A DNA stretch of 64,000 nt, from NCBI GenBank assembly GCA_965223155.1, contig CBDCVR010000015.1, positions 928,001 to 992,000 on the forward strand. Direction: 5' to 3'. Made by a program: the position numbers and the translations under genes. Each line of letters opens with the position of its first letter. The stretch's first letter is position 1. Positions 2,205-44,709 of this stretch are shown here, in pieces. The notes beneath the pieces were generated by a model. The model did not search any database. It was not told the origin of the DNA and was given only the letters and a program-made list of their open reading frames with translations. The DNA is from Candidatus Multivoradales bacterium (lineage in GTDB: Bacteria; Acidobacteriota; Thermoanaerobaculia; Multivoradales; JAHEKO01).

Positions 2205-3383
2205 ATGATCCCCTATCGGAAGCCCGATTCCTGGATCCGATACGACGCCAGCGCGGTGCTTGCTCCACTAGCAGCCGCCAAGGCGGCAGTGCTTTCGCTG
2301 ACGACAATCCCCTACCAGAGAAGCTGGGCCGAGGAGCTGCAACACCTTCAGCTCAAGAGAGAGGTGGCTGGCACCTCCAGGATCGAAGGCGCCGACTTCA
2401 CCGAGCGCGAGCTCGACATCGCCCTCGGAGAATCTGCGGGCGAGCTCGCCACGCGCTCCCAGAGGCAGGCCGCGGCGGCGGTCAAGACCTACCGCTGGAT
2501 CGCAACGTTGCCGACCGACCGGCCGGTCGACGAGCGCCTGATTCGCGAGATTCATAAGTTGATCGTCCGGGACGCAGACGACGATCATTGCCCTCCGGGT
2601 GAGCTCAGAGGCCCTGACCAGAACGTCACCTTCGGTTCTCCGCGACATCGTGGCGTCGAGGGCGGAGACTCCTGCCGGGAGGCTTTCTCCGAACTCTGCT
2701 CGGCGATCGGGCAAGAGTTCCGAGAGCACGACCCTCTCGTTCAGGCTCTTGCCCTCCACTATCACCTGGCGGCAATGCATCCGTTTCTGGATGGCAACGG
2801 CCGCACCGCCCGTGCCGCGGAGACGCTGCTCCTTCAGCGCACGGGTCTCAAAGACACTTTGTTCATTGCGATGTCCAACTACTACTATGAGGAAAAGACC
2901 GCGTATCTAGAAGCCCTTGCCCGGGTCCGCTCGAGCCAGGGAGATCTGACGGAGTTCCTGAGATTCGGCCTGCGGGGCATCGGGTTCCAATCCCAGCGCC
3001 TGTTTCAAGACATTCGAGTCCATGTCTCGAAGGCTCTCTTCAAGGTCACGATGTACGACCTCTTCGACCGGCTCCAGTCACCCAGAAAGCGCGTCCTGGC
3101 CGAACGCCAAGTTCAGATTCTGAAGCTCCTGCTCAAGAAGGACCGCAAGTGGTCGGAGGTCTACGATCGGACTCGCGAGCACTACACGTCTCTGAAGAAT
3201 CCCACCCGAGCACTCGACCGCGATCTCAGCAGCCTCCTCCATCTCAGAGCGATCGAGCTCTCGGGCGAAGAAACCGACCCTGTGTTCTCGATCCGCTTGG
3301 ACTGGCCAGGTGAGATCAGCGAGACCGAATTCTTCGCCCGGGTCAAGGAGCTGCCGCGGGCCAAGACCCATCGCTTCCTGTAA
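2205..3383 (+). CDS. Fic family protein (class II-like, with inhibitory motif)
   Basis: Canonical Fic motif HPFLDGNGRTAR, N-terminal TSRIEG ((S/T)xxxEG), basic helical C-terminal domain. Confidence 0.9.
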   Translation: MIPYRKPDSWIRYDASAVLAPLAAAKAAVLSLTTIPYQRSWAEELQHLQLKREVAGTSRIEGADFTERELDIALGESAGELATRSQRQAAAAVKTYRWIATLPTDRPVDERLIREIHKLIVRDADDDHCPPGELRGPDQNVTFGSPRHRGVEGGDSCREAFSELCSAIGQEFREHDPLVQALALHYHLAAMHPFLDGNGRTARAAETLLLQRTGLKDTLFIAMSNYYYEEKTAYLEALARVRSSQGDLTEFLRFGLRGIGFQSQRLFQDIRVHVSKALFKVTMYDLFDRLQSPRKRVLAERQVQILKLLLKKDRKWSEVYDRTREHYTSLKNPTRALDRDLSSLLHLRAIELSGEETDPVFSIRLDWPGEISETEFFARVKELPRAKTHRFL

Positions 3384-3419
3384 TCCCGGTCGCTCATTTC
3401 GGGCTGACTGACAACCCAC

Positions 3420-5021
3420 CTACATCTTGCGGCTGCGCCGCAGGGTGTCGGTCAGGGTGGCTACGACCTTGGTTTCCTCGGGCTCGGACAGGTCCAGGAT
3501 CTCCTGGAGGGCGATGCCGATGTGCGGGATGTATTTTTCGATGTACTGCTGCTTGCGCTCGGCGTCCCGGGCGCGCGCGGCGCGCTTCAGAAAGACGCCC
3601 AACCGGCGGCCCACGTGCTGGAGCGCGAGCTTGGTCTCCTTGACGATTTCGTCGTAGGCGGCCACCGCCTCCTTCGACTCCGAGGTAAACGGCACCCAGA
3701 CGCTGGCGATGTGGACCATGAGAACCAGCGGACCGGTGGGCAGCGCGCCGCGGGCCTTCTGCAGCCCATAGCTCCTCCAGTTGGTGCCCAGAACGCTCTT
3801 CGACAGCGCGCAGGCGCCCGCCTGATAGAGGAGCGGCACCCGGTTGGCAAAGCGGTAGACGGCGGCCAGATCCTCGGCTCCGAGCTCGCCGCCGTAGGCC
3901 AGGCCGACTTCGACTTGAAAGGGGTTGCCCCGGTAGACCGAGGGCGAGCGCGTCACCGCGTCGTAGTAATCGGCCTCGACCTGCTCGTTCAGACTCGCCA
4001 GGATGCGCTCCTCGCCGATTGGCGAAAGGCAATCGGTGGGCGGAGCCGGAATCCGGGTCTCGCGAATCACCGCCAGGAGCTTCTCGGCCCGCTCGGGCGA
4101 GACTCGCCGGGGCGAGGTGCGCGAGGTCAGTCCTGAACCCTCGGCAATCCGCCGGGCGAGCGTCGGGCCGACCCGGCTGAACTCGGTCTGGAAAAACGAC
4201 TTCAAGGTGGTCGCGCGGGTGTCCTTGAGCATCCGCAGGAGCAAGCCGATCTCGACTCCGTAGGGATGGGGTTGAATCTCGAGGGCTTCCTTGGGCAGGT
4301 CTCGATTCGCCCGCTTGAAGACGACCGGCTCGGCGTCTTCGTCGGCCCCCGGCGCCCGGAAGGCGATCTCGACGTGGGGGTTGGCGAGAGCCGTCTGGCG
4401 CAGATAGGTCTCGACCCCGTGCTTGCCGCCGCGATAGGTACCTTCGAGCTCGATCGTCACCCGGGTGCCGTGCGCCGCCTCCCAGCTCACCGTCGTGTCC
4501 TTCTTCACCACCGGCTCGTTCTTCTTGGTATCGATCACCAGCTCGTAGCGATGCGCGGGGCGGCGCTTCGAGGTGCGGCTTTCGATCACCACCGGCTTGC
4601 CGGTCGTCAACTGCCCGTACATGCCGGCGGCCGAGATGCCGATGCCTTGCTGGCCCCGGCTCTGGCGCAAACGATGAAACTTCGAGCCGTAGAGGAGCTT
4701 GCCGAAGATACGCGGGATCTGGTTCTTCAAGATTCCCGGGCCGTTGTCGGTGACCGTGACCCGGTAGCGGTTGTCGGTCCCCTCGACGGCCGCGATTCCG
4801 ACCTCGATCGTGGGCAGGATGCCGGCTTCTTCGCACGCATCGAGCGAGTTGTCGACCGCCTCCTTGATCGTGGTCAGAAGCGCCTTGGTCGGACTGTCGA
4901 AACCCAGCAGGTGACGGTTCTTGGTGAAAAACTCCGAGACCGAGATCTCGCGCTGAGCCGCGGCCATGGACCTGGCCGTGGCTCGCCGTGGCCGGGCCGG
5001 CTTGGAGGTTCGTTTCGCCAT
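3420..5021 (-). CDS. top6B: DNA topoisomerase VI subunit B
   Basis: EISVSEFFTKNRHLLGF; GHKL motifs KEAVDNSLDA, DNGPG, GSKFH..SRGQQGIG; PHPYG; RFANRVPLLY; VPFTSESKEA. Confidence 0.93.
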   Translation of the reverse strand: MAKRTSKPARPRRATARSMAAAQREISVSEFFTKNRHLLGFDSPTKALLTTIKEAVDNSLDACEEAGILPTIEVGIAAVEGTDNRYRVTVTDNGPGILKNQIPRIFGKLLYGSKFHRLRQSRGQQGIGISAAGMYGQLTTGKPVVIESRTSKRRPAHRYELVIDTKKNEPVVKKDTTVSWEAAHGTRVTIELEGTYRGGKHGVETYLRQTALANPHVEIAFRAPGADEDAEPVVFKRANRDLPKEALEIQPHPYGVEIGLLLRMLKDTRATTLKSFFQTEFSRVGPTLARRIAEGSGLTSRTSPRRVSPERAEKLLAVIRETRIPAPPTDCLSPIGEERILASLNEQVEADYYDAVTRSPSVYRGNPFQVEVGLAYGGELGAEDLAAVYRFANRVPLLYQAGACALSKSVLGTNWRSYGLQKARGALPTGPLVLMVHIASVWVPFTSESKEAVAAYDEIVKETKLALQHVGRRLGVFLKRAARARDAERKQQYIEKYIPHIGIALQEILDLSEPEETKVVATLTDTLRRSRKM

Positions 5022-27543: not shown

Positions 27544-27813
27544 GACGTTGTAGTGAGGCGTTCCCTGTAAGCCGGTCTGACTCCCCGGCCGGCGCCTTCT
27601 TGGGACTGATTCAATGAAGTCAGCGAGATTCCTCTGCTCTTTTTCGGACCAGCAGCGGCCGTCGATATCCTGTTTCAAAAATAGAATCGACCAAACGGGG
27701 CTTTGGAGCCGTTTCCTGAATTGCGGTGAGCAATGCGGCCCCGACGAGCCGTGCTCAGGCCAGTTCGAGTCGATTGTGGCAGGAAACTAGGGTGGAATTC
27801 GGTGACAGATGAG

Positions 27814-27827
27814 ATGAGTCGGTCGGT
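27814..27827 (+). repeat. Left subterminal inverted repeat ATGAGTCGGTCGGT
   Basis: Perfect 14-bp reverse complement of ACCGACCGACTCAT at 29152-29165. Confidence 0.9.
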
Positions 27828-27898
27828 CTCCAGCTGGGACACTGTGCCAGTTGGAGATAACCAAGAATCGGCATCAGAGCCGAGAAAGGAGACCGACC

Positions 27899-28912
27899 AT
27901 GGAGTATCTTGGCATCGATGTTCACTCGAAGTACAGCGAGGTGTGTGGCGTATCAGAAGACGGTGAGGTGACGGTTCGCCGGCGGGTTCCGACGACCGAG
28001 ACGGGCCTGCGAAGGTTCTTCGCCAATCGGGAACGCTCGCAGGTGACGCTCGAGAGCGGTCCGGTCACACCCTGGGTCTATCGACTGCTGTCTGAGCTCG
28101 GCCATGAGGTGATGGTGGTCAATCCACGCCGGGTACGTCTGATCGCGGAATCGACCCTGAAGACGGACGGAATCGACGCCGAGATCCTGGCTCGTTTGAG
28201 CCGGTTGGATCTGGGTTTGCTTCGACCAGTCTACCAGCGCACAGGTGAGGCCCAAGAGCTTCGGACGCGTCTTCGGGTCCGAACGAGTCTGGTGAAGACC
28301 AGGACCTCGCTGATCAACTCCGTACGCGGAACGCTGCGGGCACAGGGCTACCGAGTGCCCTCATGTCCGGCGAAGAGCTTCGTGGCTCGGTACGCGTCGA
28401 TGTCGGTCGAAGCCGGCCTGTTGGGAGCGCTCGAACCTCTGGTAACGACAATCGGCGAGCTGACCGATCGGATCCACCATCTCGAAGACGACCTCATCTC
28501 CGAGTCGAGATCAAACGAGCTGGTCCGTCGGCTGCAGACGGTTCCTGGTGTGGGGCCTCTGGTGAGCCTTGCGTTCGTCGGCTGGATGGATCGTCCGGAT
28601 CGGTTCGAGAAAAGCCGCGACGTCGGAGCGTGTCTGGGCTTGAGACCGTCGCTTCGCAGCTCAGGAGGGCATGAGGTCAGGGGCCGGATCACTCGCGAGG
28701 GCGACTCGGAGATGCGCAGACTCTTGGTGCAGGCAGCTCATGCGGCGTTGAACTGTCGCAAAGAGTCGTCACTCAAGAGATGGGCTGAGGGCCTGGTCGA
28801 GAGGCTGGGTAAGGGCAAGGCCGTGGTCGCGCTAGCTAGGAAGATCGCGGTGTTGCTCCACAGGCTGTGGGTGACAGGTGAGAGCTTCCGAGCCTTTCCC
28901 AAGGCAGCGTAG
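27899..28912 (+). CDS. IS110-family DEDD recombinase/transposase
   Basis: GIDVH, LESG, KTDGIDA, VPGVGP, GLRPSLRSSGG, ALARKIA. RBS AAGGAG before ATG 27899. Confidence 0.95.
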   Translation: MEYLGIDVHSKYSEVCGVSEDGEVTVRRRVPTTETGLRRFFANRERSQVTLESGPVTPWVYRLLSELGHEVMVVNPRRVRLIAESTLKTDGIDAEILARLSRLDLGLLRPVYQRTGEAQELRTRLRVRTSLVKTRTSLINSVRGTLRAQGYRVPSCPAKSFVARYASMSVEAGLLGALEPLVTTIGELTDRIHHLEDDLISESRSNELVRRLQTVPGVGPLVSLAFVGWMDRPDRFEKSRDVGACLGLRPSLRSSGGHEVRGRITREGDSEMRRLLVQAAHAALNCRKESSLKRWAEGLVERLGKGKAVVALARKIAVLLHRLWVTGESFRAFPKAA

Positions 28913-28949
28913 AAGAGATAACTAGACGACCAACAAGCAAGGACGGATT

Positions 28950-29095
28950 GAGAGGTTCGATGACTCCGAAAGTATCCTTGGTGGCCCCGACACCGTGTGA
29001 CAGATGGGAGCATCGATTCCTAAACGGACGCAAAACTCACCATGCACCGGTTCAAAGAAGAACCCTACAGAGTGCGAATAGAAGCTCGTCCCAAG
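28950..29095 (+). ncRNA. Putative bridge/seekRNA in the 3' non-coding end of IS copy 1
   Basis: Two stem-internal loop-stem modules. The loops carry GTATCCT and GTGACAG (target arms) and ATAGAAG (circle-junction arm). Boundaries approximate. Confidence 0.75.
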
Positions 29096-29151
29096 CCTCG
29101 ATCCAAACCTAAGGAAAACTACAAAAAGAAGAAACGAAACTCTTGACGCCA

Positions 29152-29165
29152 ACCGACCGACTCAT
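29152..29165 (+). repeat. Right subterminal inverted repeat
   Basis: ACCGACCGACTCAT, preceded by -35-like TTGACG (29143-29148). Confidence 0.9.
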
Positions 29166-29189
29166 AGAAGGATACTTATCTCTTTCGCC

Positions 29190-31064
29190 GTGCCGTTCTC
29201 GGCCGGACGCTTGACCGCTATCTCCCGCAACGGCCACTCCATTGACTACGCCTACGACCGCTTCGGACGCACCATCCAGGACGGCACCCTCGCCTACGCC
29301 TACGACACGAACGGCAACCGCACCGCAGTCACCTACCCAGGCGGCGTCACCGCCACGACCACCCACGACTACGCCGACCGGGAGGAGACCCTGGCCGTCA
29401 CGGATGGCGCAACCTCAACCAACCTCGTGACCGCCGCCACCTACCTGCCTTCAGGCCCGCTCACTTCCCTCGCCCTCGGCAACGGCTTGGCCGAGACCCG
29501 ATCCTTCGACTCGAGGTACTTCCCGGCAGGGATCACCGTCCCCGGACGACTCGACTGGACCTACTCGACCGACACGATCGGCAACATCCTGGAGATCGCT
29601 GACACCGGAGGCGGCGGCGACCGCACCTACACCTACCAGGACGTCCACTACTTCTTGACTTCAGGCACCGGACCCTGGGGCAGCCTGGCCTTCACCTACG
29701 ACAAGATCGGAAACCGGTTGTCTGAGACCCGGGACGCTGGCGGCTCTCCCCAGAACCGGCCCTACGCCTACCCGGCTTCGCCTTCAGGAGGCAACCTCCC
29801 CAAGCTCGCCTCGATCACGGACCCCGCGGGAGACCGTCTCGAGCGCTTCTTCTTCGACGACGCCGGCAACGAGACCTATCGCTCGACGACTACCGCCAAG
29901 CACCGGCTGAGCTACGATGCCCTGGGACGGATGAGCCAGATCAAGACCGACTCGGACGAGACCGCGGGGGCCCTCGTCACCCTCGCCTACGACGGCAGGA
30001 GCTTCCTGCGTGAAGCCGCCCGAAGCCCCTTCCCCGGCCTGCCCGCCACCGTCACCACCAACCCCACCTACAGCTCCGACGGGCTTCTCATGCACAAGGC
30101 CACCAGCGAGGTGCTGGGACCGGACGACCCGAGAGGCGAGGGGAGTGCCACCAGCAACGCCTACGTCCTCTACTTCGCCGGCAGGCCCGTAGGCATCCTC
30201 GAAAACGAAACCGTGACGCCCCTGGGCGGCGGCACAACCTCGAGCTCCACCCTCACCTACCTGACCACCGACCATCTCGGCACCCCCGTCCTCGCCACCG
30301 ATACCGGGGGAGCCACCACCTGGGCCGGAGGCTTCGCACCCTTCGGGGACGACTGGCAGGCGGAGACGGGTACCGGGGCGAGTGACGCCGGAGTCTTCCT
30401 GCGCTTCCCCGGCCAGTGGGACGACCCGGCCTGGGGTGGGGCGGGGGCGGCGGGCACTAGCGCCTCAGACCCGGGCCTCTACTACAACGTCCACAGGTGG
30501 TACGAGCCGGGGACGGGGAGGTACGGGAGGGTTGATCCGTTGGGCAAAAACGGAGAGGTCATCAGCTGGCCAACCGACGCTGCTGGGCTCGTTGCTCTCC
30601 GGGCGGGCACGGAGGCATCTGCGGCGATTAGGGACCTACAGGTTGTCAGTTGGAGTGCGACATTGTCTCCTTGGTTCGGATACGCACATCAGAACCCACT
30701 GAACCTCGTCGATCCAAATGGTCTCCTAACTTGTCGAGGACAGTGGAAAAAGACCTCAAGCCGGAGAGCCTTCTTGCTGTGGCCGCCGTTGTTTTGGAAC
30801 GGATGCGTCTGTCGTTGGCGCTGCGAGTCATGCACGCAAGACGACATCCTTCCCGCCAATCCCTCTGATATGCCTCTCACCAAGGGCTCAATGATCAACA
30901 CCGGCAGAGGCGCCAAGTTCGGAGATACCTGTCTTTGCCCCCCTCCTGGTGACGAAACAGGATGTTTCGAGTGTCAACCTCCTGAACTGCCCCAGCTACG
31001 AACTCCCGGAACCGCAATATGTGATCAAGGTCGCATCTCGGTACCGGGCCGATCTTGTTCATGA
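29190..31064 (+). pseudogene. Orphan RHS core fragment 2 with Cys-rich tip CT2
   Basis: Near-identical to RHS1 from PFSAGRL onward, lacks the N-terminal ~1000 aa; DPNGL followed by a unique Cys-rich tip. Confidence 0.85.
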
Positions 31065-43007: not shown

Positions 43008-43406
43008 CTCCCCATCTGCATCCCAGTGTCAAGAGCTGCCTCGAGACGTAGGTTCCACTCATTAGGCGGCGGTCTGTCAAGGGCACGGCTGTTCCTCCCG
43101 GCCTGGTCGGTCGGTTCGCGTTATGGGCAAGGTAGGTTCGGTAGCGCTTGGTTTCGGGTCTCTCGAGGTGGAGTCGATGACGCTCCATCCACTCATCAGG
43201 ATCTAGGCCGAGAGAGATTGGTGCCAGGCCTGCAAGATGCAAGCTGAGTGTACCCACCTGGGAAATCCGGTGACAGGATACCTATTTCAAGGGAAGAATC
43301 CGGCCGCAAAGGGACACTCGAAATATGTATCCTTCTATGAGTCGGTCGGTTGGCGTCAAGAGTTTCGTTTCTTCTTTTTGTAGTTTTCCTTAGGTTTGGA
43401 TCGAGG

Positions 43407-43552
43407 CTTGGGACGAGCTTCTATTCGCACTCTGTAGGGTTCTTCTTTGAACCGGTGCATGGTGAGTTTTGCGTCCGTTTAGGAATCGATGCTCCCATCT
43501 GTCACACGGTGTCGGGGCCACCAAGGATACTTTCGGAGTCATCGAACCTCTC
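43407..43552 (-). ncRNA. Putative bridge/seekRNA of IS copy 2
   Basis: Mirror of 28950-29095. Confidence 0.75.
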
Positions 43553-43589
43553 AATCCGTCCTTGCTTGTTGGTCGTCTAGTTATCTCTT

Positions 43590-44603
43590 CTACGCTGCCT
43601 TGGGAAAGGCTCGGAAGCTCTCACCTGTCACCCACAGCCTGTGGAGCAACACCGCGATCTTCCTAGCTAGCGCGACCACGGCCTTGCCCTTACCCAGCCT
43701 CTCGACCAGGCCCTCAGCCCATCTCTTGAGTGACGACTCTTTGCGACAGTTCAACGCCGCATGAGCTGCCTGCACCAAGAGTCTGCGCATCTCCGAGTCG
43801 CCCTCGCGAGTGATCCGGCCCCTGACCTCATGCCCTCCTGAGCTGCGAAGCGACGGTCTCAAGCCCAGACACGCTCCGACGTCGCGGCTTTTCTCGAACC
43901 GATCCGGACGATCCATCCAGCCGACGAACGCAAGGCTCACCAGAGGCCCCACACCAGGAACCGTCTGCAGCCGACGGACCAGCTCGTTTGATCTCGACTC
44001 GGAGATGAGGTCGTCTTCGAGATGGTGGATCCGATCGGTCAGCTCGCCGATTGTCGTTACCAGAGGTTCGAGCGCTCCCAACAGGCCGGCTTCGACCGAC
44101 ATCGACGCGTACCGAGCCACGAAGCTCTTCGCCGGACATGAGGGCACTCGGTAGCCCTGTGCCCGCAGCGTTCCGCGTACGGAGTTGATCAGCGAGGTCC
44201 TGGTCTTCACCAGACTCGTTCGGACCCGAAGACGCGTCCGAAGCTCTTGGGCCTCACCTGTGCGCTGGTAGACTGGTCGAAGCAAACCCAGATCCAACCG
44301 GCTCAAACGAGCCAGGATCTCGGCGTCGATTCCGTCCGTCTTCAGGGTCGATTCCGCGATCAGACGTACCCGGCGTGGATTGACCACCATCACCTCATGG
44401 CCGAGCTCAGACAGCAGTCGATAGACCCAGGGTGTGACCGGACCGCTCTCGAGCGTCACCTGCGAGCGTTCCCGATTGGCGAAGAACCTTCGCAGGCCCG
44501 TCTCGGTCGTCGGAACCCGCCGGCGAACCGTCACCTCACCGTCTTCTGATACGCCACACACCTCGCTGTACTTCGAGTGAACATCGATGCCAAGATACTC
44601 CAT
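43590..44603 (-). CDS. IS110-family DEDD recombinase/transposase
   Basis: Same translation as 27899-28912. Confidence 0.95.
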   Translation of the reverse strand: MEYLGIDVHSKYSEVCGVSEDGEVTVRRRVPTTETGLRRFFANRERSQVTLESGPVTPWVYRLLSELGHEVMVVNPRRVRLIAESTLKTDGIDAEILARLSRLDLGLLRPVYQRTGEAQELRTRLRVRTSLVKTRTSLINSVRGTLRAQGYRVPSCPAKSFVARYASMSVEAGLLGALEPLVTTIGELTDRIHHLEDDLISESRSNELVRRLQTVPGVGPLVSLAFVGWMDRPDRFEKSRDVGACLGLRPSLRSSGGHEVRGRITREGDSEMRRLLVQAAHAALNCRKESSLKRWAEGLVERLGKGKAVVALARKIAVLLHRLWVTGESFRAFPKAA

Positions 44604-44709
44604 GGTCGGTCTCCTTTCTCGGCTCTGATGCCGATTCTTGGTTATCTCCAACTGGCACAGTGTCCCAGCTGGAGACCGACCGACTCATCTCATCTGTCAC
44701 CGAATTCGC

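Follow-up and report, generated by a model that had tools for sequence, protein, structure and literature searches.

Insertion sequences (IS) of the IS110 and IS1111 groups encode RNA-guided recombinases that are under development as programmable tools for DNA insertion, and the mechanism of these enzymes is known mostly from IS621, a member of the IS110 group. Members of the IS1111 group are defined by subterminal inverted repeats of 7–17 base pairs (bp) and short terminal extensions (PMC11187229; PMC11208160); their recombinases comprise ~330–350 amino acids (aa) and carry the group's motif in the form GL-P----S(t)G (Siddiquee 2024, PMC11187229). The strands of IS1111-type guide RNAs (bridge RNAs or seekRNAs) are arranged in the reverse order of the IS110 type (PMC11187229), and bridge RNAs of IS1111 elements are located in the right end (PMC11208160). 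Such RNAs were predicted for 93% of the IS1111 elements in ISfinder (Durrant 2024, PMC11208160), and the abstract of Siddiquee 2024 (PMC11187229) reports four seekRNAs shown experimentally. Concerning the donor, Durrant 2024 (PMC11208160) predicted donor-binding nucleotides in IS1111 RNAs, often in a multiloop, and described the right-donor pairing of IS621 as discontiguous. The present work deals with an element of this kind, termed element A, at positions 27807–29168 of a 64,000-nucleotide (nt) stretch, the window, from the genome of a Candidatus Multivoradales bacterium of the phylum Acidobacteriota (contig C15, positions 928001–992000).

Based on the features described below, it is proposed with a probability of about 0.88 that element A is an autonomous IS1111 element whose 3' end encodes a two-module guide RNA (~28941–29091) for target and donor. 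Given the predictions for 93% of IS1111 elements and the four experimental cases, the element was classed within an already known kind; by itself it leaves the knowledge of that kind unchanged, being one of very many such orthologues. It represents an IS1111 example whose target, donor and complete set of four guide strands are readable, with a re-targeted sibling in the same genome and about 100 relatives sharing the scaffold. The comparative set obtained serves two questions, namely whether module 2 binds the donor in IS1111 elements and how many core bases must be shared.

Recombinase, Element Ends and Target Site

Element A is bordered by GGTGAC / AGATGAG (27807–27813) on the left and by CATAGA (29163–29168) / AGGATAC (29169–29175) on the right (Table 1). 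Terminal extensions of 7 nt (left) and 3 nt (right) lie outside the subterminal repeats, and the non-coding end downstream of the gene comprises 256 nt compared to 92 nt upstream; both features are in line with the IS1111 group. The deduced recombinase matched the Pfam families PF01548 (DEDD_Tnp_IS110; E = 8.5e-25, 87.8 bits, cut-off 29) and PF02371 (Transposase_20; E = 4.5e-21, 75.5 bits, cut-off 21.3). In an alignment with 32 relatives of 58–87% identity, E52, D90, D93, G247, P250 and S255 were invariant and D7 and G256 nearly so; the IS1111 motif reads GLRPSLRSSG (G247..S255 G256), and the length of 337 aa falls within 330–350 aa. Recombinase residues were equated with D11/E60/D102/D105/S241 of IS621 by motif position and not by structural alignment. 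Its similarity to the solved chains of IS621 (E = 6e-10) and ISCro4 (E = 3e-10) marks the protein as no more than a distant relative of these, and the best plasmid-borne match of the IS110 family shares 37% identity with it. Judged from its sequence, element A is an autonomous insertion sequence of the IS1111 group and another example of the known RNA-guided IS110/IS1111 kind.

A preliminary description of the window, made from its letters and reading frames, had called the recombinase IS1111-type, and the two domains, the subterminal repeats, the length of the 3' non-coding end and the order of the guides, which is that of IS1111, bear this out. Its placing of the ends and of the stems and loop letters of both modules was likewise found in the sequence letter for letter.

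Table 1. Coordinates of element A, its predicted guide RNA and associated sites in the window.
Feature	Position	Strand	Basis
Whole insertion sequence, 1362 bp with one AG overlap copy	27807–29168	+	Limits exact in 14 full-length genome matches at ~100% identity
Left target arm GGTGAC	27801–27806	+	Left of 15/15 copies; within the empty-site 13-mer
AG overlap ("core"), left copy	27807–27808	+	AG common to both junctions and the empty site
Left-end extension ATGAG, proposed right-donor arm	27809–27813	+	In relatives, varies together with the 5' strand of the module 2 loop
Left subterminal inverted repeat ATGAGTCGGTCGGT	27814–27827	+	Perfect 14-bp complement of 29152–29165
Recombinase gene, 337 aa	27899–28912	+	Sole long reading frame; ATG after an AGGAG
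Predicted long bridge/seekRNA, 151 nt, ends inferred from conservation	28941–29091	+	Block kept among elements A, B and L037; sides diverge
Module 1, target-binding loop; outer stem, GGTG/CACC hairpin inside	28957–29016	+	Folding, covariation
Right-target guide strand AAGTATCCTT	28970–28979	+	GTATC pairs right arm, CT pairs AG, last T pairs final right-end base
Left-target guide strand GTGACAG (28997–29003), then ATG	28997–29006	+	Left arm, AG and first 3 left-end bases
Module 2, proposed donor-binding loop; stems GGACG/CGTCC, GCAC/GTGC, GGTTC/GAACC	29026–29091	+	Folding, covariation; outer stem ambiguous
Proposed right-donor guide CTCACCAT	29036–29043	+	Read discontiguously, CUCA-c-C-a-U against AG-A-TGAG
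Left-donor guide ATAGAAG	29078–29084	+	Equals last 5 right-end bases plus AG
TTGACG, possible -35 box of an outward junction promoter	29143–29148	+	TTGAC at fixed distance (20 nt) from the right end across relatives
Right subterminal inverted repeat ACCGACCGACTCAT	29152–29165	+	Sequence read directly
Right-end extension AGA	29166–29168	+	Sequence read directly
Second AG copy and right target arm GATAC	29169–29175	+	Sequence and copy junctions
Uninterrupted target GGTGACAGGATAC, in the repeat-doublet arm opposite the one that carries the second copy	43269–43281	+	Empty-site search
Second identical element copy	43334–44695	-	Genome search, C15:971334–972695

In the host assembly (4.0 Mb, 15 contigs), 14 full-length copies were detected, of which 12 are identical, one measures 1363 bp and one scores slightly lower, as would be expected from a single difference; on contig C7, a fifteenth copy is interrupted by a different insertion sequence. 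The left junction GGTGAC was found in all 15 copies, and the right junction is AGGATAC in 14 of them and AGGATGC in one. The empty 13-mer GGTGACAGGATAC occurs at 17 sites in the genome, compared to none for the reversed control pattern. Moreover, C7:1–10444 is 98.9% identical to C14:355657–366092, and C7:13185–13485 continues as C14:366091–366393; the target site contains the element on C7, whereas C14:366085 is an empty site, corresponding to a precise gain of the element and one AG. Based on the copy junctions, the empty sites and this filled/empty pair, the target was determined as GGTGAC-AG-GATAC, the joined ends would read CATAGA-AG-ATGAG, and the copies indicate that the element inserts in one orientation at this target. 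Both sequences had been deduced beforehand from the window alone; unrelated targets at the other genomic copies, which would have spoken against that deduction, were not encountered, since all copies lie between GGTGAC and AGGAT(A/G)C. The number of independent insertion sites is given as 12–15 because three copies are located on the small contigs C2, C7 and C11, which partly repeat chromosomal regions.

The target sites lie within repeats of the form GAAATnC-GGTGACAGGATAC-nTATTTC, which often form inverted doublets 58–91 bp apart that fold as long hairpins, resembling REPINs (repetitive extragenic palindrome doublets forming hairpins). Examples are located at 43269–43333 in the window and at C13:301094–301164, C13:303669–303739, C14:561681–561739 and C15:702794–702885. 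Elements of this family are known to insert into repeated palindromes, as indicated by reference titles and the beginning of the ISPpu9 abstract. For the host genome, the element accounts for at least 15 repeats and marks the palindromic repeat family as insertion hot spots.

Target-Matching Strands and a Re-Targeted Sibling

Module 1 of the predicted RNA is closed by an outer stem of TCGATG-A-CTCC (28957–28967) with GGAGCATCGA (29007–29016). Within it, the core GTATCCT (28972–28978) of the right-target guide is the reverse complement of AG plus GATAC, and the reverse complement of the complete strand 28970–28979, AAGGATACTT (A-AG-GATACTT), equals 29168–29177, i.e., the right junction over 10 nt. 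The left-target strand GTGACAGATG (GTGAC-AG-ATG) equals 27802–27811, the left junction over 10 nt. With both target-loop strands continuing into the junctions of the inserted product, a part in excision in addition to insertion would be conceivable. The pattern GTATCCT-N(10–30)-GTGACAG occurs twice in the window, once per IS copy, and in none of 100 shuffles.

A handshake with the left end was also considered for the AT(G) that comes after AG in the left-target strand and was rejected, as no covariation was seen; a constraint of the scaffold is possible. AT follows AG in 32 of 44 distinct left-target strands, and relative L051 keeps AT despite a different left-end start. All left ends located by pattern search begin with ATG, but the pattern was itself anchored on ATG and would have overlooked different starts.

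The same genome harbors element B in two copies (C15:372320 and C13:297857) that are 82% identical to element A. In element B, the outermost ~90 nt on the left and 16 nt on the right are unchanged, and so are the loop strands of module 2 apart from one base at the 5' edge. The loops of module 1 differ: GTATCCT is replaced by AAAGGGT and GTGACAG by GTGCCAG. Correspondingly, the copies of element B are flanked by GGTTCC|..|ACCCTTTTC and GGTGCC|..|AGCCTTTCC, which fit the loops of element B and not those of element A. Compensatory changes were observed in its stems (GGTG/CACC to GGAG/CTCC and GGTTC/GAACC to GGTCC/GGACC). The empty site GTKCCASCCTTT of element B was found three times in the genome compared to four times for the reversed control and is thus not enriched, so that no empty-site proof is available for this element. 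A lone, inverted 42-nt left-end fragment (98% identical) was noticed at C13:299287–299328 (L019), ~125 bp downstream of the element B copy at C13:297857; it is preceded by GGTTCC and therefore lies at a left target of the element B type.

Relatives were collected at several levels. A single-protein search of genome contigs yielded one close relative, L037, from an Acidobacteria metagenome-assembled genome (85% protein identity). Relatives at E ≤ 1e-40 were present in 27 of 401 genomes of the same phylum (host included), the full-length ones being at most 44% identical to the window protein; the fragment L062 reaches 56% identity over 154 residues. Many environmental relatives at 58–87% identity were found in a large protein database, and a metagenome scan provided 80 loci at 51–86% identity. 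Locus L045 of genome G152, which is flagged as unpublished, contributes one row to the counts, and no claim depends on this genome.

Guide strands were compared with the flanks of their own and of foreign elements. In the first set, the longest exact match of the reverse complement of the 5' strand, searched in the 300 nt downstream of the RNA, reached at least 9 in 9 of 22 own pairs and in 1 of 460 cross pairs. These 22 rows leave out two duplicates, two rows with short flanks and four with truncated loops, one of the latter being a chance-level second match in L063. The merged set comprises 102 elements, in 80 of which the right end was recognised and followed by 9 nt or more of flank, giving 70 distinct guide/flank pairs. 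For the 7-nt arm of the right guide, at least six positions matched in 34 of 70 own and 4 of 3594 cross pairs, and at least five in 46 of 70 own and 28 of 3594 cross pairs. For the 9-mer of the left guide (7 nt plus AG), at least seven positions matched in 33 of 45 own and 10 of 864 cross pairs, this test having fewer independent cases because many relatives share the left arm GTGCC. All own/cross ratios are descriptive and not probabilities, since the rows are related to one another. An extension (CT) of the left-donor strand was tried as a right-target match and gave none.

Element L037 is inserted at GGTGAC-AG-GCTAC, with an empty GGTGACAGGCTAC ~50 bp away. Taken together, the comparison indicates that the loop strands of module 1 change together with the flanks in the sibling and in about 100 relatives, with the stems keeping their pairing. 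The decoding of the guide given in the preliminary description is thereby sustained by the re-targeted sibling, the family-wide concordance of guides and flanks, and the structural covariation described in the following section.

Among the relatives, two arrangements of target sequences were observed. Many metagenome loci of ~52% identity (L097–L148) carry guides for GTGCC-AG-GCAC, which is nearly palindromic, and the left arm GTGCC recurs with varied right arms. At locus L040 (genome G053), the right end is first followed by sequence resembling the element's own left target plus AG, and the match to the right-target guide lies 37 nt further on, which may represent a nested or tandem target arrangement.

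Fold and Conservation of the Predicted Guide RNA

The minimum free energy (MFE) and centroid folds of 28940–29100 both contain the two modules. A covariance model (R1) built on the 151-nt block with 28 base pairs matched 25 of 29 related loci of the same phylum, always downstream of the gene, with L038, L061, L064 and L065 missed; of the 80 metagenome loci it matched 76, again without exception on the 3' side of the gene. In the 24 distinct rows of the first set, compensatory changes were found in 25 of 28 pairs. In the same rows, 93.9% of the cells allow pairing compared to 31–43% with the partners slid by 1–3 columns, and none of 500 shuffles reached the observed values. The stems and adjoining letters are conserved (GACUGCG...AGAUGGCAGC; CAUGCACC...AGAGUGCGAAUAGAAGC), and the inner loop strands of module 1 vary from element to element. 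Folding and covariation had been suggested as a check of the RNA: the predicted folds and the compensatory pairs came out in its favor, and the folding energy did not (see below). Support for the RNA structure therefore rests on covariation and not on energy.

In module 2, GGACG (29026–29030) faces CGTCC (29087–29091) and GCAC (29044–29047) faces GTGC (29072–29075). The motif GGACG is present twice (28941–28945 and 29026–29030), and either copy can pair with CGTCC, which would place the donor strands in a multiloop or in an internal loop. The guide assignments are independent of which copy pairs.

A further inverted repeat, TCTCCAGCTGG / CCAGTTGGAGA, was noticed at 27827–27857 in the left end, following the subterminal repeat and upstream of the ribosome-binding site; it is nearly identical in element B and L037 and may represent a 5'-leader hairpin.

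Module 2 and the Element Ends

The left-donor guide matches the right end of element A exactly. In relatives, the variants ATAGA, ATGGA, AGACA and AAAGA each match the element's own right end, the right ends in this comparison having been located independently by the conserved TTGAC ~20 nt from the end. Relative L043 shows G for A in the left-donor comparison, where a G.T pair is still possible. On the opposite strand, CTCA (29036–29039) is complementary to TGAG of the left-end extension. Left ends with ATGAG go with CTCA in 18 of 19 combinations and those with ATGGG go with CCCA in 15 of 18, i.e., 33 of 37 distinct combinations agree, with few independent events among them. Furthermore, three ATGGG relatives read CCCAUC-g-U, a complete match with one bulge. 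The preliminary description had noted ATAGAAG and a partial CTCA match opposite; the former is exact and CTCA is present, but the opposite match extends beyond CTCA if read discontiguously, and the outer stem has an equally good alternative in GGACG at 28941–28945.

These observations suggest that module 2 binds the donor. This role is regarded as probable rather than firm because a short RNA without module 2 sufficed for ISEc11, the role of the long form being left open (Siddiquee 2024, PMC11187229).

Proposed Mechanism and Alternative Explanations

According to the proposal of a two-module guide RNA, the RNA would either be carried at the 3' end of the recombinase mRNA or be transcribed from a promoter that arises when the ends join in the circle, and it would bind the DEDD recombinase. 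Module 1 would select the target, its 5' strand being complementary to the top strand of AG plus the right arm and its 3' strand, identical to the left arm plus AG, being complementary to the bottom strand. Module 2 would hold the joined circle ends, with ATAGA-AG pairing with the right end and CUCA..C.U pairing discontiguously with the left end, and the strands would be exchanged, in the manner of IS621, where donor and target share A(G). For targeting, module 1 on its own may be enough, in the form of a short RNA like that shown for ISEc11.

Several results weigh against this proposal, in addition to the ISEc11 finding. The folding energy of 28940–29100 is ordinary (z = -0.71; 49 of 200 shuffles fold as well), and a permissive Rfam search of the RNA region returned three chance-level matches (E = 0.69–7.1), none of them a bridge RNA. 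The alignments A2 and A4 were fitted to the covariance model, which favors the structure, and the relatives are not mutually independent. The partner of the outer stem of module 2 is not settled by the relatives, which are split, several of them pairing the 3' end better with the 5' leader. Concerning the guides, the right-donor match is weak, comprising four contiguous bases, or six of seven with a bulge plus one mismatch. The right-target guide GTAACCT of L037, the closest foreign copy, leaves one A.C mismatch with its own flank. Concordance of the right arm is also incomplete, as 24 of 70 comparisons score below 5/7; at least five of these rows (L042, L051, L058, L062 and L094) look like one-base register shifts of the automatic extraction. 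Regarding expression and activity, a strict sigma-70 consensus scan of 27700–29300 found no promoter site, none of the listed sequencing runs is on record as RNA, and the contigs of four runs contained no circle junction, excision joint or empty site, although contigs would hardly show one.

The alternative that survives best assumes that only module 1 guides, as a short seekRNA, and that module 2 is a protein-binding or processing scaffold or an mRNA 3' structure. The recombinase would then recognise the ends via the subterminal repeats, and the matches between module 2 and the ends would not reflect pairing. For ISEc11, the 82-nt RNA alone gave the highest transposition (PMC11187229), the contiguous right-donor match of element A is just CTCA, and module 2 and the ends are so conserved that few independent changes can be tested. 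Against this stand the left-donor guide, which tracks four right-end sequences found independently via TTGAC, the agreement of the left-end extension with the opposite strand of module 2 described above, and the donor-binding nucleotides predicted in IS1111 RNAs by Durrant 2024 (PMC11208160). Guidance by module 1 only is therefore considered unlikely, although it keeps more weight than the alternatives that follow.

A second alternative concerns mobility: the copies might be immobile and owe their identity to duplication, gene conversion or assembly redundancy instead of recent transposition. The partial repetition of chromosomal regions by C2, C7 and C11 and the lack of an excision or circle joint in the contigs of the four runs would fit such a history. 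However, the flanks beyond the target repeat differ among the copies, the reading frame, ends and RNA are intact in all copies, and a filled/empty site pair exists, which makes immobility quite improbable. The earlier assessment that the element was recently active agrees with the 14 near-identical copies and with the filled/empty pair in its 98.9%-identical context. Finally, recognition of the palindromic repeat by the protein, with the matches between loops and target arising by chance or as a relic of a captured target, would accommodate a target within a structured repeat and an unexceptional fold energy, but it is hardly credible in view of the 7-mer pair absent from all shuffles, the loops of element B that changed to fit non-repeat targets, and the own-versus-cross concordance over ~70 elements.

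The AG Overlap and a Possible One-Base Crossover

The AG core assigned to element A in the preliminary description is present in its own sequences; the siblings suggest that only the A need be shared. In relative L052, AA takes the place of AG at both junctions and in the guide strands for the left target, the right target and the left donor. In 17 rows of the merged set, including element B, the right-target guide has AC at the overlap, and the left-target and left-donor guides have AG. Among these rows, the left junction is AG in all 11 readable ones, which represent 10 distinct insertions because the two copies of element B share one guide. The right junction is AC in seven distinct insertions, AG in three and AT in two. 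A left junction AC was not found in the whole merged set, nor was the reciprocal combination of left AC and right AG. On this pattern, the donor would supply the second overlap base at the left junction, and the target would supply it at the right junction.

Across mismatched cores, a two-base staggered exchange like that of IS621 should leave both combinations after replication. The occurrence of a single junction combination therefore suggests a one-base crossover or a strand-biased resolution. It is possible, and put forward tentatively given the small numbers and the lack of empty sites for these elements, that donor and target in this IS1111 subfamily must have just the A, the first base of AG, in common. 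For element A the question does not arise because its target and donor both have AG.

Expression and Genomic Context

A junction promoter at TTGACG was inferred for element A. In the circle, TTGACG would face GAAGAT across 18 nt (hand count); the chromosome has GAAGGA at this place. Junction promoters are described for the family in review passages and in the title of a reference on Pjunc of ISEc11. In the contigs of the four sequencing runs, the only loose ends correspond to flanks of other copies, and the depth at these places is not a copy number. One contig of run X4 joins the left end (before 27807) to a flank not ending in GGTGAC, which might reflect a rearrangement, an insertion outside the usual target or the presence of a relative.

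The first copy in the window lies directly upstream of a 624-aa open reading frame with RHS repeats (29190–31064; PF05593, E = 7.1e-11). The start of this frame is uncertain; therefore, the insertion may cut it off from upstream sequence. The copy on contig C7 is split at element position 971 by a 1369-bp insertion (C7:11414–12782; L015 ~2472–3840), with element bases 961–971 (11) duplicated on either side. This insertion encodes a 435-aa transposase of the Mutator family (PF00872, E = 1.8e-65), and a 60-nt probe derived from it occurs five times in the genome.

Comparison with Known Systems

The closest described elements are ISEc11 and ISXne4 (PMC11187229), which, like element A, have subterminal inverted repeats, encode a recombinase of 330–350 aa and carry the guide RNA downstream of its gene in the 3' non-coding end. 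The order of the guides is also the same, the strand complementary to the top strand lying 5' of the match to the bottom strand and both matches overlapping in the target. Furthermore, ISEc11 and ISXne4 form a sibling pair in which the stems are conserved and the target letters changed, as in elements A and B; Siddiquee 2024 (PMC11187229) drew on evidence of this type. Long seekRNA forms comprise 145–172 nt and short ones 82–96 nt (PMC11187229), compared to the 151-nt block and the ~80-nt module 1 predicted here. In contrast to these two elements, element A has another target and a donor-matching second module that can be read and covaries with the ends, and it is known from its sequence alone.

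Orientation-specific insertion into repeated extragenic palindromes is shared with ISPa11, ISPpu9/ISPpu10 and IS621, as far as indicated in titles and excerpts of the respective reports; an excerpt of PMC11187229 lists ISPa11 as a member of the IS1111 group with a 96/172-nt seekRNA. Repeat family, 13-bp site and host phylum differ from those of element A.

IS621 (PMC11208160; PMC11208158) resembles element A in its recombinase of the DEDD plus serine type and in the discontiguous right-donor pairing proposed here. Moreover, the base 3' of the right-target guide of element A can pair with the last left base of the donor, similar to the handshake guide of IS621 (PMC11208158). In contrast, IS621 carries its RNA in the left end, its guide order is reversed, its subterminal repeats measure 2–3 bp and its core is CT. 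A further difference is suggested by the siblings of element A, in which donor and target can apparently differ in the second overlap base.

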